From: Candidatus Micrarchaeota archaeon
GTDB taxonomy: Archaea > Micrarchaeota > Micrarchaeia > Norongarragalinales > Norongarragalinaceae
Reading direction: 5' to 3'
Length of the DNA stretch: 64,000 nt
NCBI GenBank assembly: GCA_016188965.1
Contig: JACPGT010000013.1
Location: forward strand, 66-64,065
Made by a program: the position numbers and the translations under genes. The notes beneath the pieces are model-generated. The model did no database searches, was not told where the DNA came from, and saw only the letters and a list, made by a program, of their open reading frames with translations. This document shows positions 1,001 through 51,222 of the stretch, one piece after another; positions within the stretch are counted from its first letter, which is position 1, and every line of letters begins with the position of its first letter.

Positions 1001-1235
1001 GGTTCTATCCCACCCCTTTTGTTTTTGCAACCCGTACGGTACGGGTTCAAAATGCTACTACGCACGGTGTAGAACGGGGCGTAAAAGCCATCCGGCGGAC
1101 GTCGGACGACGAATGGAATTGTTCGGTTTTGAACAAGGCCAAAGGCCCGTATGGCCGCAGCCCGTCGGAAAAATACCCGGCTTAAGGAAGACGCGAAATC
1201 ACGCATGCACGCCTTTACCAAGGAAGTTCTCACAT

Positions 1236-1286
1236 GGTCGCCCCGGGGGAAGCGTCCCCCTGGAGCGCCCTGCTCCTCGCCCCCTC
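1236..1286 (+). repeat. solo copy of 51-nt GC-rich hairpin repeat (family M1: GGTCGCCCCGG-hairpin-CCTGG...CCTCGCCCCCTC)
   Basis: Near-identical to 38702..38752. Related, on the opposite strand, to 49778..49832, where the hairpin stem differs by compensatory changes. Confidence 0.7.
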
Positions 1287-1301
1287 ACAAAAGCCGAGGA
1301 A

Positions 1302-2720
1302 TCACGAATGAACCCCTTTGCCTAGAAAATTCTCCATCGCTTCGGTCAAACCTTCGGACAAAGTAGGGTGTGGATGTATGCTCAAGGCGAAGTCTTCCAC
1401 GGACGCGCCCAATTCGATGGCCAAGACGGCCTCGCCGATGAGTTCGCCGGCATCCGGGCCCACGATCTGCACGCCCAAGATAGTGTTGTCCTCCGAAGCG
1501 ACGACTTTGACGAAGCCGTCACCGGCATTCATCGATAAGGCGCGGCCGGAGGCTTGAAACGGAAATTTGGCCGCCTTGACATGCAGGCCTTGCTTCTTGG
1601 CCTCTTCCTCACTTAAGCCGGCGGAGGCGATTTCCGGGTCGCAGAAGATGACGGAGGGAATGACTTTGGCCAAAAACGCCACGTTGTGGCCCGCGGCATG
1701 CTCGCCAGCGACTTTTCCCTCCAAATAGGCCTTGTGAGCCAAAAGGGGCCCGCCTCGGACGTCGCCGATGGCATAAATATGCGGCTGGTTCGTCTGCATG
1801 CTGATGTTCGTCACGATAAACCCCTTGGAATCGGTCTTGACCCGCGCTTTTTCCAACGCTAAGCCCTCGACGTAAGGCCGGTGGCCCACGCAGACGAGAA
1901 CATAGTCCGTGTAGACGTTGCCGCCGGACGTGCGGACCGTCAAAGCCGCGTCACCGCCTACTTTTTGGCCGGCGGACGGCGTGGTTTCGGAATATCCTTC
2001 CACTTTACAATTGAGCTTGAGTTCGACGCCGAGTTCCTTCATGCGTTTTTCCAGAAGCTTCCGCGTTTCGTTGTCCGCCTGCGGCAAGAACGAAGGCATT
2101 CCTTCCAAAATGGTGACGTGCGATCCGAGTTTGGCGTACATGAAGCCCAACTCCAGGCCGATGTACCCCGCACCGATGACCACGAGGCGCTTGGGAATCT
2201 CCGTCAATTCCAAGGCCTTGCGGGAATTCCAGATGCGGGCCTGGCGGTACGAAAAACCGGGAATCTCGATGCTTTTCGAACCCGTGGCGATGATGGCTTT
2301 GCCGAATTCGATGCCTTGCTTGCCGTCCGGCAGATGGATCAAGGCGCGGTTGGGCGATTCGAACTGGGCCACGCCTTGGATGACCGTCACGCCGCGCTTT
2401 TGGCACAAGTGCTCGATGCCGCGGCAGAGCTGGCCGACGACCTTTTCCTTCCAAGCCCGAAGTTTAGCCACATCAACGGAAGTCGAAGCCGTAAGCCCGA
2501 TTTCTTCGGCGTGGCGGGCGTCTTCAACGAAGTTGGCGGCGTGAATGAGCGTCTTGGAGGGGATGCAGCCGTAGTGGAGGCACATGCCGCCGAGGCGTTC
2601 CTTTTCCACCAACGTGACGGACTTTCCTAAGGCAGCGGCTCGAAGGGCAGCCACGTAGCCGCCGGGTCCGCCGCCGATGACGAGTAAGTCGGTCTGTTGG
2701 GGTAAGTCACCCATCACCAT
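1302..2720 (-). CDS. lpdA: dihydrolipoamide dehydrogenase (E3)
   Basis: GGGPGGY FAD-binding motif, redox-active CLHYGCIPSK disulfide and C-terminal HPHPTLSE interface motif. 472 aa. Confidence 0.93.
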   Translation of the reverse strand: MVMGDLPQQTDLLVIGGGPGGYVAALRAAALGKSVTLVEKERLGGMCLHYGCIPSKTLIHAANFVEDARHAEEIGLTASTSVDVAKLRAWKEKVVGQLCRGIEHLCQKRGVTVIQGVAQFESPNRALIHLPDGKQGIEFGKAIIATGSKSIEIPGFSYRQARIWNSRKALELTEIPKRLVVIGAGYIGLELGFMYAKLGSHVTILEGMPSFLPQADNETRKLLEKRMKELGVELKLNCKVEGYSETTPSAGQKVGGDAALTVRTSGGNVYTDYVLVCVGHRPYVEGLALEKARVKTDSKGFIVTNISMQTNQPHIYAIGDVRGGPLLAHKAYLEGKVAGEHAAGHNVAFLAKVIPSVIFCDPEIASAGLSEEEAKKQGLHVKAAKFPFQASGRALSMNAGDGFVKVVASEDNTILGVQIVGPDAGELIGEAVLAIELGASVEDFALSIHPHPTLSEGLTEAMENFLGKGVHS

Positions 2721-4361: not shown

Positions 4362-5330
4362 TTACGCCTCGCACGCTTTTTGAAGTGCTTTTGCAATGCG
4401 TTGCGGACTCGGAATATAATAGTCTTCGCGGCGGGCCAGCGGCATGGGTACGTCGTAGCCGCCCACGCGCAAGATGGGCCCTTTGAGGTCATACATGGCT
4501 TCTTGCGCCACGCAGGCGGCGATTTCGGCGCCGAATCCGCCGGTAATGGGGGCTTCGTGAGCGATGACCAAGCGGCCGGTCTTGCGAACGGATTGCAACA
4601 CCAAATCGCGGTCCCACGGCGAAATCGTGCGCAAATCGATGACTTCCACGGATTTGCCCGAGTCAGCCGCGGCCTGAAGCGAAGGCTTGGCCATGGAGCC
4701 CCACGATACCAGCGTCACATCCGAGCCTTCCTGTCGGATGACGGCCTCGCCCAGCGGGATGGCGTACAGTTCGTCGGGTACTTCCTGCTTGAACGCACGG
4801 TAATACTTGGACGGTTCCAGGAAAATAACGGGGTCCGGTTCGCGGATGCTCTGCACCAAAAGCCCTTTGGCGTCGTACGGCGTGGACGGGATGACGACTT
4901 TCAAACCGGCCACGTGGGCGTACAGCGCCTCCATGCTTTCCGAGTGGTGTTCCAAGGCCCGGATGCCGCCAGAACACGGCGCCCGAACCACCAAAGGACA
5001 CGTGAATTGTCCTTGCGAGCGCATGCGCAAGCGGGCGGCGTGGTTGAACAACTGGTTGATGGCCGGATAGATGAAGCCCGCGAATTGGATTTCCGCCACC
5101 GGGCGGAAGCCGTACGCCGCAAGACCGATTGCCGCGCCCACGATGGCGGACTCCGCCAGAGGCGTGTCGATGGCGCGATCTTCGCCGAACTTGGCATGCA
5201 AGCCGTCGGTTGCGCGGAAGACGCCGCCGTCCACGCCGACGTCCTCGCCCATGACCAAAACCATCGGGTCGCGCTCCATTTCCTGGCGCAAGGCTTCATT
5301 GATCGCGGCAATCAGGGTTTTTTCGCTCAT
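4362..5330 (-). CDS. 2-oxoacid (pyruvate) dehydrogenase E1 component, beta subunit
   Basis: 322 aa with a typical transketolase-like pyrimidine-binding and C-terminal domain sequence (GEDVG..GGVF, PLAE, RAPxxGG). Sits between E1-alpha and E2. Confidence 0.9.
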   Translation of the reverse strand: MSEKTLIAAINEALRQEMERDPMVLVMGEDVGVDGGVFRATDGLHAKFGEDRAIDTPLAESAIVGAAIGLAAYGFRPVAEIQFAGFIYPAINQLFNHAARLRMRSQGQFTCPLVVRAPCSGGIRALEHHSESMEALYAHVAGLKVVIPSTPYDAKGLLVQSIREPDPVIFLEPSKYYRAFKQEVPDELYAIPLGEAVIRQEGSDVTLVSWGSMAKPSLQAAADSGKSVEVIDLRTISPWDRDLVLQSVRKTGRLVIAHEAPITGGFGAEIAACVAQEAMYDLKGPILRVGGYDVPMPLARREDYYIPSPQRIAKALQKACEA

Positions 5331-10182: not shown

Positions 10183-10302
10183 GCGGCTGTGGTCCAGTGG
10201 CATGATACGACCTTCCCATAAGCCGGGATAAACGCCCCGAAAATACGCCTTGAACCGGCTTGGAATCAGGTTGAGATGCGGGTTCGATTCCCGCCAGCCG
10301 CA
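10183..10302 (+). tRNA. tRNA-Gly(CCC) with canonical 49-nt intron (10219..10267)
   Basis: Hand fold: acceptor GCGGCTG/CAGCCGC, T arm GCGGG-TTCGATT-CCCGC, anticodon stem CGACC/GGTTG, loop TTCCCAA after splicing, 4-nt variable loop, discriminator A. Perfect BHB: 4-bp central helix TTCC/GGAA, 3-nt bulges, 7-bp inner helix AAGCCGG/CCGGCTT. T-run follows. Confidence 0.85.
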
Positions 10303-38443: not shown

Positions 38444-38672
38444 TCGCGGTACCCGGCAGGGCGCGAAGACTTGGCGAAAAACCAAGTCCAGCGTCTTGCA
38501 AGTTCAACGGAACTTGTAAGGCCACACAATTTCGCTACGGCGAAATTGTGCTGACCAACAACGCAAAAACGTTGATGGGTCGGCGAATTCGCTCTGACGA
38601 GCACGTCAGCACACAGAACGCCAAAAGCAGAAGAAGGGTTTGCGCTCGTGCCCGGCAGGGCCGAGCGTTTTG
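38444..38672. ncRNA. hairpin-dense intergenic block, candidate structured RNA of unknown class
   Basis: At least 7 near-perfect stem-loops in about 230 nt, including CAAGTTC-AACG-GAACTTG, CACAATTTCGC-TACG-GCGAAATTGTG and CTGACG-AGCA-CGTCAG. Flanked by two matching GGCA-loop hairpins (38444..38466, 38643..38667), the second followed by TTTT. Confidence 0.4.
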
Positions 38673-38675
38673 CTG

Positions 38676-38697
38676 AAAACGGGCCCGACGGGATTTG
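38676..38697 (-). repeat. 22-nt exact duplicate of the 3' end of tRNA-Arg (T-loop to trailer)
   Basis: aaaacgggcccgacgggatttg is identical to 38833..38854. Confidence 0.9.
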
Positions 38698-38832
38698 CAA
38701 CGGTCGCCCCGGGGGACGCGTCCCCCTGGCACGGCCTGCGCCTCGCCCCCTCGAATTCGCGTGCAAATTCAAAGGGAGGGGTCAGGAGAACCGTGAAACT
38801 GGGGGAACCGTAGGTTCCCGCGGTTCCGGCGC
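38698..38832. mobile_element. 135-nt insert between the tRNA-Arg 3' end and its duplicate; ends are imperfect inverted hairpin repeats (M1 at 38702..38752, M2 at 38774..38832)
   Basis: Flanked by 22-nt direct repeats. The same repeat family sits at the tRNA-Ile locus in the opposite orientation. No ORF. Confidence 0.4.
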
Positions 38833-38836
38833 AAAA

Positions 38837-39005
38837 CGGGCCCGACGGGATTTGAACCCGCAACCTGCTGGTTTCTCCCACTAGGAAAGAAAGCCAATAA
38901 TGCCGTTCTCTCCCAAGATCGAAGCCTCGGCTTCCGAAGAGGCCTTAAAAGCTTGAAAGCCGGTATTCGGAACCAGCCGCTCTATCCTGGTTGAGCCACG
39001 GGCCC
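38837..39005 (-). tRNA. tRNA-Arg(CCG) with canonical-position 94-nt intron (38873..38966)
   Basis: Hand fold: acceptor GGGCCCG/CGGGCCC, D arm GCTC-AACCAGGATA-GAGC, anticodon stem GCTGG/CCAGC, loop TTCCGAA after splicing, variable AGGTT, T arm GCGGG-TTCAAAT-CCCGT, discriminator G. The BHB central helix is TTCC/GGAG. Confidence 0.85.
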
Positions 39006-39221
39006 TTATGAAAGAAAAGTAGTAGTGAAGCCCGTTAAAAAAGCCGCGGGAAGAACGAGCACGGTTTGCTGAAAAGGGCAGAGAAGCGTCAATACTTGAA
39101 GAGCGTCAGCAGCAAAGCGCCCAGGAGGATGAGCATGAGCCAGACTTTGACGTCGAACCACCACCAACCGCGCATGAAGAAGCGGTGGCGGACTGGGTTT
39201 TTACGTTTTTGGTTGCGGCAT

Positions 39222-49567: not shown

Positions 49568-49610
49568 GTAATCGCCAAAGCGGGCGTGAATTAAAGGCTT
49601 TTGATAAAAA

Positions 49611-49625
49611 GGGCCCGGGGAGATT
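49611..49625 (-). repeat. 15-nt exact duplicate of the 3' end of tRNA-Ile
   Basis: gggcccggggagatt is identical to 49836..49850. A T-run follows on the minus strand. Confidence 0.8.
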
Positions 49626-49834
49626 TGTAACCGGAACCGCGGGGAGGAACGCCTTCCCTCAGTTTCCGCATAAGTCTTCGGAGGACTTATGGGACCCGCA
49701 AATTCAGCAGAATTTGCACGGTCACGTTCTTCCGGAGCCCCACCCTAACGAATGCATTGCGAATCAGAAAAGGGAAGGAGGCGAGGCCCAGGGCGGGCCA
49801 GGAGGAAACCGTAGGTTTCCTCCGGGGCGACCAA
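49626..49834. mobile_element. about 210-nt hairpin-rich insert between the tRNA-Ile 3' end and its duplicate (M2 at 49631..49669, M1 on the opposite strand at 49778..49832)
   Basis: Same end motifs as the tRNA-Arg insert but inverted relative to the tRNA. Inner perfect hairpins CATAAGTC..GACTTATG and GCAAATTC-AGCA-GAATTTGC. No ORF. Confidence 0.4.
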
Positions 49835-49941
49835 TGGGCCCGGGGAGATTCGAACTCCCGACCGCTCGATGTCCAAAGGTTCAGGCATGTGCCGGAACGC
49901 ATTATCAGTCGAGTGCTCCAACCAGGCTAAGCTACGGGCCC
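49835..49941 (-). tRNA. tRNA-Ile(GAT) with canonical 32-nt intron (49871..49902)
   Basis: Hand fold: acceptor GGGCCCG/CGGGCCC, D arm GCTT..GAGC, anticodon stem CTCGA/TCGAG, loop CTGATAA after splicing, variable CGGTC, T arm GGGAG-TTCGAAT-CTCCC, discriminator A. Confidence 0.85.
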
Positions 49942-50277: not shown

Positions 50278-51222
50278 TCAGCCGTAGCCTCCGCCGACAA
50301 CGCCACTCACGGCGCCGCCGACCGAGCCACTGCCGGAACCGGATGCCCCGCCAGAAGCGGAGCCGGATGCGTCAGCGGAAGCCGAACCGGACGCCTCGCT
50401 CGAACCGCCCACGCCGATGCCACCGACGATGTTGCCGGTCGAGTTGAGCGTGCCGCCGATGATCACGTCACCCGTGGTGCCGACGAGGACGACGGCATCC
50501 GCCGGAATGGCCAGGCCGATGCCGACGTTGCCCTTGATATCCATGCCGACTTTCACGTTGGTTTTGACCGAGCCGCCGACGATCTGGACGCGGTTGCCGT
50601 TCTCGACGTTCACCTTCGCGTCCGTGCGCGATTCGAACTGGATGACCGGCGCCATGACGTACTTGGCCTCGGCGCTCCCTTGGCCTTCCGCCTTCCCGGC
50701 GACATGCAACGACTCGTCCGCGATGAAGTCGAACGTCGCGCTGGACGTGCCGTTGGCCTTGACCACGAGGTCGCCGATGAACTTGATCTGGTTCGACGGC
50801 ATCTTGGCCTGGTGCGAGCCCTCCGCATCCACGACCGTGACGCTGGACACATCCATGCGCATCTGGTCATAGGTGTCGGCTTTCAGCTGGGCGTCCGCCA
50901 GCAGCGCCGTGGCGCCTTGCGCCTTCAACTCCAACAGGTCGACCGTCTTGGATTCGCTCGACGCCGTCACCCATCCTTGCGACGCGCTGTGGACCTGGAC
51001 CGAATCGATGCGCATCTGGACGCTGCTGACGGCACCCATGTCCGCCGCCGCGTCCGTGACTCCGAACACGGCACGGCCCGTGGCGGTCGTGCCGCTGCCA
51101 TACCCTCCGGACGATGTTGGCGAAGCCGTCGGCGTCGTGCTCACGCTTCCTTGCGCCGTGCAGCCGACCAACATCAGCGAAACGGCCAACACACCCAACA
51201 ACATCCAACGCATCGAATTCAT
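50278..51222 (-). CDS. lipobox-bearing secreted protein, DUF4382-like beta-sandwich N-domain, G/S-rich C-terminal tail
   Basis: MNSMRWMLLGVLAVSLMLVGC signal. VFGVTDAAAD..V..V.MRIDSVQVH..GW....S..KTVDLL.L pattern. Terminal GSASADASGSASGGASGSGSGS tract. Confidence 0.5.
   Translation of the reverse strand: MNSMRWMLLGVLAVSLMLVGCTAQGSVSTTPTASPTSSGGYGSGTTATGRAVFGVTDAAADMGAVSSVQMRIDSVQVHSASQGWVTASSESKTVDLLELKAQGATALLADAQLKADTYDQMRMDVSSVTVVDAEGSHQAKMPSNQIKFIGDLVVKANGTSSATFDFIADESLHVAGKAEGQGSAEAKYVMAPVIQFESRTDAKVNVENGNRVQIVGGSVKTNVKVGMDIKGNVGIGLAIPADAVVLVGTTGDVIIGGTLNSTGNIVGGIGVGGSSEASGSASADASGSASGGASGSGSGSVGGAVSGVVGGGYG

Follow-up and report, generated by a model that had tools for sequence, protein, structure and literature searches.

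The window analyzed here, a 64-kb stretch of DNA from a Candidatus Micrarchaeota archaeon, contains a tRNA-Arg gene whose 3′ end is present twice, and the 135 nt that separate the two copies (38698-38832) are the insert with which this report is concerned. An exact 22-nt repeat, AAAACGGGCCCGACGGGATTTG, occupies positions 38676-38697 and 38833-38854 (100% identity, spacing 157, by repeat search) and spans the tRNA from T-loop position 56 to the discriminator plus TTTT. When a 1-nt indel is allowed, the repeat lengthens to 25 nt (..GATTTG[C]AAC versus ..GATTTGAAC) and runs from G53 of the T-stem to four T's beyond the discriminator. The flank-repeat score of the insert is 22, against a mean of 9.1 and a 99th percentile of 20.5 at 1000 random positions, and chance origin of the repeat is excluded. 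Rfam RF00005 places the tRNA on the minus strand (39005..38837, 47.8 bits) with an intron of ~97 nt in the anticodon loop, while ARAGORN makes no call at its default settings and, with introns allowed (-i), recovers the gene under the label Trp-CCA. The anticodon depends on intron placement, and an intron placed canonically at 37/38 makes the gene Arg-CCG. A TATA-like TTTTTTAA lies ~30 nt upstream, and the original trailer of the gene, TTTTCAGCAAAACGCTCGG, comes after the detached duplicate. An intron of the bulge-helix-bulge type in the T-loop, with the distal copy serving as the true 3′ exon, is not needed, because the tRNA is complete with the proximal copy.

The insert is made of two related double-hairpin modules of ~55 nt, M1 and M2, which lie tail to tail with their heads outward, each head abutting one copy of the duplicated tRNA end. 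The M1 arm comprises CAAC plus the head GGTCGCCCCGG, hairpin 1 (GGGGGAC-GC-GTCCCCC), hairpin 2 (GGCAC-GGCCT-GCGCC) and the tail TCGCCCCCTCG; the general M1 layout, on the plus strand, is GGTCGCCCCGG, hairpin 1, CCTGG NNC GSCCT GNN CC (hairpin 2) and TCGCCCCYTCC. On the minus strand, the M2 arm has the head GCGCCGGAACCGCGG, the hairpin GGGAACC-TAC-GGTTCCC and then CCCAGTTTCACGGTTCTCCTGACCCCTCCC, and the M2 layout, read on that other strand, is head CCGGAACCGCGG, hairpin, CCCAGTTTCACGG, TTCTCC and tail TGACCCCTCCC. M1 and M2 share this layout and align collinearly, and composites have arms that are inverted, collinearly alignable and alike in their heads (CAACGGTCGCC, TAACCGGAACC). Inverted repeats at 38708-38729 and 38797-38825 form the GC-rich hairpins of the insert, and the C-rich M1 tail can pair with the G-rich complement of the M2 tail across the central linker. 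Judged by its sequence, the tRNA-Arg composite resembles a transposable element of the miniature inverted-repeat kind (MITE) with imperfect terminal inverted repeats (TIRs). An earlier note made from the letters of the window (hereafter the original prediction) had described the 22-nt duplicate and an insert with imperfect inverted ends, each holding a GC-rich hairpin, and both hold up: the repeat is exact and lies above the random-position null, and both hairpins are found in the two arms. Its further claim that the insert has no open reading frame (ORF) stands in part, as mechanical ORFs of 65-145 aa do run across the 135 nt, none of them with Pfam support.

Covariation is seen in both M1 hairpins. 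In a set of 37 distinct sequences, 92% of the cells form pairs and compensatory changes occur in 31 cells, a covariation score that none of 500 shuffles reached and that is abolished when the 3′ partners are slid. Non-Watson-Crick cells on the GGTCGCC strand include 0 G.T and 13 A.C/C.A, so the mismatches are wobble-compatible only on the complementary strand, which at tRNA-Arg is the tRNA-sense strand; roughly five independent events lie behind these mismatches, and the strand asymmetry is suggestive rather than conclusive. RNA folding of the 135-nt insert predicts the tRNA-sense (minus) strand to be more stable than shuffled versions (z = −2.6) and the opposite strand not to be (z = −0.9).

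All the modules follow one plan: a conserved head (consensus ~YAACGGWCSCC), then a hairpin that is variable but covaries, next either a short second hairpin or a stretch that is conserved, and finally a tail rich in C (CCCCYTCC). Among the retrieved loci (numbered with the prefix L), L148 contains a third module type, M2′ (TGACCATCAAAGG, hairpin, CTATTCTGGTCG..CCCCTTCC), at the orthologous tRNA-Arg locus. There the tRNA-proximal arm is M2′ where the window has M2, and the M1 arm and detached duplicate are conserved, a comparison by which the arms are evidently exchangeable. Similarity among M1 copies ends at the module borders of ~52-60 nt, and the covariance-model scan also finds single M1 copies without an inverted partner. 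One M2-only copy, in L122 (1280-1420), lies upstream of tRNA-Glu(CTC), where it is flanked by a duplicated tRNA 5′ end plus promoter region, the sole tRNA 5′-end case seen; target and head share CCGG at this M2 junction. An M2 model run over 432 kb of loci yielded nothing beyond the four copies on which it was trained, two of which lie in the window, a count biased against M2, as that set of loci was chosen via M1. In L132 (171-264), an M1 copy carries a palindromic insertion of ~40 nt (..CCGACGATGCACGGATGCATCGTCGG..) in the hairpin-1 loop.

Exactly three copies of M1 are present in the 64-kb window according to the covariance model, and they occupy different settings (Table 1). Rfam recognizes three tRNA genes in the window, all with long anticodon-loop introns; default ARAGORN calls none of them, and ARAGORN recovers them once introns are allowed. 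tRNA-Ile is the second target among them. The tRNA-Ile insert is homologous to the tRNA-Arg insert along its length and inverted relative to its tRNA; it is a second, independent insertion of the same family, which supports the related case that the original prediction noted there. Its M2 is interrupted by a two-hairpin insertion of ~55 nt (49667-49722, minus strand), with the hairpins GCAAATTC-TGCT-GAATTTGC and CATAAGTC-CTCCGAA-GACTTATG, so that small hairpin modules are nested here. The sole T-run terminator of tRNA-Ile sits after the detached duplicate, and the element is therefore necessarily co-transcribed with the tRNA. The third copy is a solo M1 (1236-1287) with no tRNA close to it. 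It lies beside the dihydrolipoyl dehydrogenase gene (lpd; 1302..2720, minus strand) and is flanked by a diverged 44-nt duplication of the lpd 3′ end (1188-1231 and 1291-1334) that comprises the last 10 codons and the stop.

Table 1. Coordinates of the M1/M2 elements, their targets and the intron-containing tRNA genes in the window.
Feature	Position	Strand	Evidence
tRNA-Arg with ~97-nt intron	38837..39005	-	Rfam, ARAGORN -i
Target copy within the working tRNA-Arg (G53/T-loop to discriminator plus TTTT trailer)	38833..38857	-	repeat search, flank alignment
M2 arm, head adjoining the tRNA 3′ end	38774..38832	-	aligned with three other M2 copies and M1; sequence model R2, 58.3 bits
Central linker joining the two tails	38754..38773	.	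sequence
M1 arm	38698..38753	+	covariance model R1, 67.4 bits, E=2e-12; both hairpins covary
Detached duplicate of the tRNA-Arg 3′ end, abutting the M1 head	38676..38697	-	repeat search
tRNA-Ile(GAU) with 33-nt intron, second target	49835..49941	-	Rfam, 55.1 bits
Second composite insert, at tRNA-Ile	49608..49834	-	M1 49832..49774; M2 49745..49628
Detached duplicate at tRNA-Ile, CAAATCTCCCCGGGCCC(TTT)	49627..49608	-	flank alignment
Solo M1 with flanks, just after the dihydrolipoyl dehydrogenase stop codon	1188..1334	+	R1, 73.2 bits; flank alignment
tRNA with ~50-nt intron	10183..10302	+	Rfam

Some smaller features accompany these genes. A fourth ARAGORN call, a tRNA-Pro at 51044-51215 with a 73-nt intron, is without Rfam support. 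The short repeat G(T/G)TTTGCTGAAA lies on either side of the tRNA-Arg locus (38667-38678 and 39063-39074); its complement makes up the trailer of the tRNA (TTTTCAGCAAAAC), and in relatives a trailer of similar sequence (CTTTGAGCAAAG) recurs after tRNAs. The hairpin CCACACAATTTCGC..GCGAAATTGTG at 38522-38550 lies ~125 nt past the detached duplicate, and hairpins resembling it occur at or inside the tRNA-Arg element in L149-L151 and L153 and also in L127.

Beyond the window, the covariance model identifies 39 M1 copies in the retrieved loci, representing ~37 distinct contexts. When an M1 pattern was scanned against one genome per species (185,579 species), 65 matches were returned, 11 of which are the full module, all in three Candidatus Micrarchaeota groundwater metagenome-assembled genomes (MAGs); the other 54 fall in GC-rich bacteria, lack the remaining M1 features and were taken as chance. 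A stricter pattern run against metagenome contigs matched 41 loci and added 25 further distinct contexts. The window is itself part of a Micrarchaeota MAG, and one of its proteins matches HYV43_05610 at 100% identity. No match to the element was found in phage and plasmid collections, and two loose patterns run against viral contigs gave chance matches only, in GC-rich phages, including a look-alike inside an actinophage coding region (L028). Rfam, searched even at E<=10, returned only tRNA matches and no RNA family for the element. M1 is a dispersed repeat specific to Candidatus Micrarchaeota, and an assembly artefact is ruled out by the occurrence of the same architecture in independent NCBI, JGI, ENA and Logan assemblies.

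Direct repeats of the local target flank nearly all copies, with scores of up to 75 against a null mean of 9 and a 99th percentile of 20.5, and M1 is flanked by repeats of ~37 differing targets (the repeat copy abutting the M1 head is termed XL, and the one after the tail XR). The duplication has a median of 23 nt (range 18-25 nt) in the composite form (n = 9) and of 44 nt (range 21-95 nt) in the single M1 form (n = 28), and its length varies even among identical M1 copies. tRNA 3′ ends account for ~12 of the 37 contexts against ~1% expected, >20-fold over this rough expectation; among these tRNAs are Arg, Ile, Glu, His, Ala, Gly and Ser, and without exception their repeats begin in the T-arm. 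The protein-gene contexts divide into ~13 at 3′ ends and ~11 at 5′ ends. Of the 3′ ends, 12 have their stop codon at −2 to +14 nt relative to the tail, and the distance is 35-51 nt in the L043/L146 context; at the 5′ ends, tail and ATG are 3-36 nt apart, or 62 nt apart in L129. Duplicated segments end near plausible transcript ends (ATG −0..12 nt, stop +0..14 nt, tRNA +2..13 nt), and copies occur in both orientations, at gene starts and gene ends alike. Given that the same M1 sits at ~25 protein-gene termini, each with its own target duplicated, the duplicate is made from the target and is not a carried attP. In two loci (L094, 5140-5300; L144, 100-260), an ORF (512 and 1035 aa) crosses M1 and continues in the same frame into the gene downstream, and M1 may be translated there as part of the reading frame; an RGQG..IEY-like N-terminus is encoded by the duplicated segment of L144 and of L129.

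The junction at the head is sharp. A pyrimidine precedes the head at −1 in 33 of 37 copies, within a weak C-A-W-Y consensus that ends at the junction and often reads ..AAC. The complement of the universal T-arm sequence (..GATTCGAAC or ..GATTTGAAC) provides this ..AAC match, and the bias toward tRNAs may plausibly stem from it. Relative to the intact target, XL has one extra nucleotide exactly 3 positions before the head junction in at least nine copies (among them window 38698, window 1232, L056, L118 and L112). Insertion is also polar: in 33 of 36 contexts, every one of the ~24 protein-gene contexts among them, the tail faces the intact gene and the head abuts the detached copy. Only tRNAs depart from this, in three cases (Ile in the window, Glu in L112 and His in L126). 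Where the head joins within a gene, the insertion is tolerated only when its duplication exits via the gene terminus, and such geometry, combined with selection, explains part of the polarity.

Sites without the element are found in close relatives. At tRNA-Arg, L152 is empty: its neighboring protein is 67% identical, and the tRNA is directly followed by TTTTGAGCAGAGTCGCTGG, the counterpart of the sequence that comes after the detached duplicate in the window and in L148. At the lpd site of the solo copy at 1236, the closest relative, L156 (Lpd 90% identical in amino acids), has a single gene end and no M1 (lpd ends ..CATTCGTGA/TTCCAGG), and L158 is likewise empty. The 679-kb contig of JBFOMO01 has no element at the lpd site. 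The part of the original prediction that saw a small MITE-like mobile insert, with the tRNA 3′ end duplicated on insertion, is supported. Its question of whether copies always sit next to tRNA 3′ ends and always have a duplicated end is answered by flanking duplications at essentially every copy and by tRNAs that are a preference within a scattered distribution.

Other relatives preserve traces of movement and rearrangement. M1 is 100% identical over 59 nt in L084 and L093, unrelated loci of one MAG, which shows recent mobility. L138 (1880-2040, minus strand) reads X0-M1(deleted)-X1-M1-X2, the older M1 being internally deleted and the younger complete; the younger 59-nt repeat extends over the final 12 nt of the older copy, the nucleotide at the head junction is the same, and the arrangement shows serial insertion at one junction. 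At the trpG start, two species carry M1 at the same nucleotide and the M1 subfamilies differ. A tRNA-Arg-type detached end lies on one side of the L137 element (4480-4680) and tRNA-Ser on the other, and L149 and L153 carry the tRNA-Arg block inverted with respect to the adjacent gene; this chimera and these inversions show that element copies recombine.

The insert is a composite member of a family of small double-hairpin mobile elements that are GC-rich, non-coding and specific to Micrarchaeota. On balance, we favor the view that it is probably mobilized in trans at the DNA level. The element has no gene of its own, and a partner, if any, would lie elsewhere in the genome. Such a partner would recognize the head and hairpin on one strand and attach the head where target and head match over 3-4 nt and position −1 is a pyrimidine, often ..AAC; a ..GAAC match of this kind would be available in the complement of GTTCRAAT, the universal T-arm sequence, which would explain the tRNA bias. 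A second break would fall 18-25 nt away in composites or 21-95 nt away in single M1 copies, and fill-in of these staggered breaks would duplicate the interval between them. In densely coding genomes, only those insertions whose duplication spans a gene terminus would survive, one copy of the terminus staying with the gene, as in the intact tRNA-Arg, and the other being left detached beyond the element.

Several observations weigh against this interpretation. No transposase, integrase, reverse transcriptase (RT) or Cas1 domains were found among the ~50 ORFs of the window, the 64 kb of this genome that was seen, and none of the 8-20-kb pieces around matches has a transposase between heads. Duplications of 21-95 nt among near-identical M1 copies are unlike the product of a fixed-geometry transposase, and the existence of single M1 copies lacking an inverted partner means that the label "TIR transposon" suits composites only. 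The polarity is stronger than symmetric cut-and-fill plus selection predicts, and purely intergenic insertions are absent among the contexts, which geometry and selection do not predict. Several insertions are common to species that are ~20% diverged, and these may be old, fixed and possibly co-opted.

To these must be added the codon-position signature of the detached gene ends. In 21 protein contexts (loci L043-L147 plus window 1188-1334), detached and functional copies differ at codon positions 3:1:2 in the numbers 100:26:6 (gene's frame; chi-square p~1e-25), with mismatches between target copies showing a 3-nt period. Detached copies of orthologous insertions also differ across species mainly at third positions, and all four copies from the two species, two per species, lie at roughly equal distances from one another; tRNA relics, unlike gene-end copies, are mutated at conserved T-loop positions. 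This pattern is incompatible with simple duplication followed by neutral decay, and neither neutral decay nor gene conversion from the neighboring functional copy yields 100:26:6. Read-through translation joining the gene-end copies was discarded, given that their offsets, counted by hand, are mostly not multiples of 3, and so was a diversity-generating retroelement, in which template and variable repeats accompany a GC-rich hairpin, given that the mismatches between repeats are not adenine-specific. The remaining reading is that detached copies are repeatedly overwritten by recombination with functional alleles of empty-site lineages, or that one copy arrives with the element from another lineage in what would be a homing-like co-conversion. 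Filled and empty alleles do coexist among close relatives, and similar exchange by co-conversion has been proposed for yeast mitochondrial GC clusters (PMC4478555).

The best-surviving alternative, which we nonetheless consider unlikely, is retroposition of the short interspersed nuclear element (SINE) kind, in which the transcribed complement of GGTCGCC..., often a tRNA trailer or 3′ untranslated region, would be copied into a preferred nick by target-primed or template-switching RT, a variable second nick giving the variable duplication. Long variable duplications with one sharp, sequence-preferred junction and one variable boundary would be expected under such a scheme, as would the 1-2 extra nucleotides close to the sharp junction in at least nine copies and the ending of duplicated segments near plausible transcript ends. 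The single-strand asymmetry of the hairpins and the better fold of the minus strand relative to shuffles agree with it too, and in 22 of 25 gene-3′-end contexts it is the wobble-compatible strand that is transcribed as sense. Yet no RT was found in the window, to which that search was confined, and the element has no A-rich or repeat tail, its tails being C-rich (CCCCYTCC). Moreover, the two outward heads of composites suit a DNA element better, and the 5′-end and 3′-end contexts demand two priming modes.

Less probable still is enzyme-free template switching of the type termed fork stalling and template switching or microhomology-mediated break-induced replication (FoSTeS/MMBIR). Hairpins would stall replication, and the nascent strand would jump by microhomology to another M1 and back, re-copying a target stretch, with homologous recombination in the flanks spreading copies between lineages. 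The 3-4-nt matches at the head junction (..AAC before GGTC for M1, CCGG at the M2 junction) and the variable duplication length are as this model would have them. The chimeric flanks of L137 and the inversions in L149 and L153 argue in its favor by showing that copies recombine, and third-position-only divergence fits allele exchange between filled and empty sites, a process thought to be similar in yeast mitochondrial GC clusters (PMC4478555). However, ~37 copies have module boundaries that agree to the nucleotide, one junction is used more than once and head sequences are conserved across diverged genomes, and these three features point instead to sequence-specific recognition by a protein.

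We find it improbable that the module is a non-mobile, host-functional structured RNA or DNA, be it a signal for 3′-end processing or termination, a small RNA derived from the trailer or a site for protein binding. Its structure is kept, with compensatory changes, across genomes of 67-80% coding DNA identity, the entire tRNA-Arg block is present in several relatives (L148, L149 and the L108 group), and the tRNA-Ile element must be transcribed with its gene, all of which would suit a host function. Against this stand the empty sites of close relatives, the occurrence of copies in both orientations and at gene starts as well as ends, identical copies at unrelated loci and the lack of an Rfam family match; some copies may have been co-opted. 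A C/D-box guide RNA was likewise set aside, as the tRNA intron, read by eye, shows no C/D boxes, and the sRNA-like MITE of Pyrobaculum is not the same thing.

Finally, a tyrosine-integrase element that entered tRNA-Arg with its own attP and was later reduced to 135 nt between attL and attR, the classical site-specific footprint named in the original prediction, is effectively excluded: the repeat does run from the T-loop/T-stem past the 3′ end, as at many integrase att sites, and detached protein-gene copies do look like functional coding sequence, as expected of element-borne ends under selection, but no integrase lies in or near the insert or elsewhere in the window, no cargo is present, phage and plasmid collections give no match, the Arg and Ile inserts are oppositely oriented, and the 55-nt module at ~25 protein-gene termini and ~10 tRNAs would need a separate attP and the same deletion end points each time.

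If insertion is a polar, microhomology-guided reaction that duplicates 20-95 nt of target, the regeneration of gene termini would let the module colonize both ends of essential genes and of tRNAs in the tiny, gene-dense genomes of DPANN archaea. Rebuilding of the gene end would allow the element to be tolerated within the first or last 20-95 nt of essential genes, which is unusual in a gene-dense genome of ~1 Mb. The coding-like detached copies would mean either that filled and empty alleles are continually exchanged between lineages in a homing-like manner or that the element carries functional gene ends, and the codon-position signature would then offer a handle on allele exchange among uncultivated episymbionts. 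As a practical matter, gene callers and tRNA finders will meet duplicated gene starts and ends and pseudo-tRNA 3′ ends in such MAGs. The repeats are also recombination substrates, with chimeric flanks and inversions seen at the tRNA-Arg locus in relatives, and the many dated copies and empty sites make testable the mechanism of long variable duplications, for which none is accepted even in IS1634/IS1549.

Mobile elements of DPANN archaea are little described, and a full-text literature search aimed at this element family found no description of it. We tentatively raise the possibility of an undescribed class of archaeal mobile element, a strand-specific double-hairpin module of ~55 nt, single or as an inverted pair, whose polar, microhomology-guided insertion would duplicate 20-95 nt and regenerate gene termini. 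The family is best filed with the non-autonomous hairpin or MITE-like elements, and there is a real chance that its insertion chemistry is new. No system with which we compared it combines all of its features. MITEs are likewise short, non-coding, multi-copy, bordered by target duplications and presumably mobilized in trans, and composites share their two related, inverted, outward-facing arms. In contrast to the fixed 2-10 nt of MITEs, however, the duplications here are variable and span 18-95 nt, most copies are single-armed, the arms are defined by covarying hairpins and no parent insertion sequence (IS) with matching ends was found.

Among elements with long duplications, casposons are archaeal, generate duplications of 14 to 35 bp and insert 3′-distally in tRNA or aEF-2 genes without inactivating them (PMC4779613), and thus resemble the present family in their host domain, in long duplications and in leaving tRNA and protein gene ends active. 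They are, in contrast, kb-sized elements with Cas1, PolB and TIRs and a family-constant duplication length, where duplication length here varies among identical copies. Cas1 was not found among the window ORFs, and the window PolB is an ordinary 802-aa family-B polymerase, with no mobile-element genes among the ORFs tested. IS1634 and IS1549, which are IS4-related, make direct repeats of 8-514 bp and variable length, for which there was no mechanistic model as of 2008 (PMC2266710). The likeness lies in these long, variable-length repeats, whereas IS1634 and IS1549 are autonomous DDE elements with TIRs in Mycobacterium and Mycoplasma and the element is a 55-nt hairpin module in DPANN archaea. 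Tyrosine-integrase tRNA elements also have a direct repeat from the T-loop to past the 3′ end and leave the tRNA functional; the present element differs in having neither integrase nor cargo, in making its repeat from the local target and in that ~2/3 of its targets are protein genes. SINE-like retroposons share variable duplications and the combination of one defined and one variable end.

Closer parallels in form come from other hairpin elements. Repetitive extragenic palindromes and bacterial interspersed mosaic elements (REP/BIME), and palindrome-associated elements derived from IS200/IS605, are similarly defined by structure; they have strand-specific hairpins and no classical TIRs, are single or in inverted pairs and sit mostly just outside genes. 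They make no duplication and lie beside a fixed tetra- or pentanucleotide, in contrast to the long duplications and weak C-A-W-Y preference seen here, and neither a Y1 transposase nor a REP-associated tyrosine transposase (RAYT) was found. The GC clusters and double-hairpin elements of yeast, Allomyces and sponge mitochondria show module merging, presence/absence polymorphism and spread by flank recombination with co-conversion (PMC4478555). They are organellar, have flanking repeats of 2-3 nt, lie in AT-rich spacers and do not regenerate gene ends by long duplications, and they share with the family described here the character of GC-rich mobile hairpins of 40-80 nt with shuffled modules.

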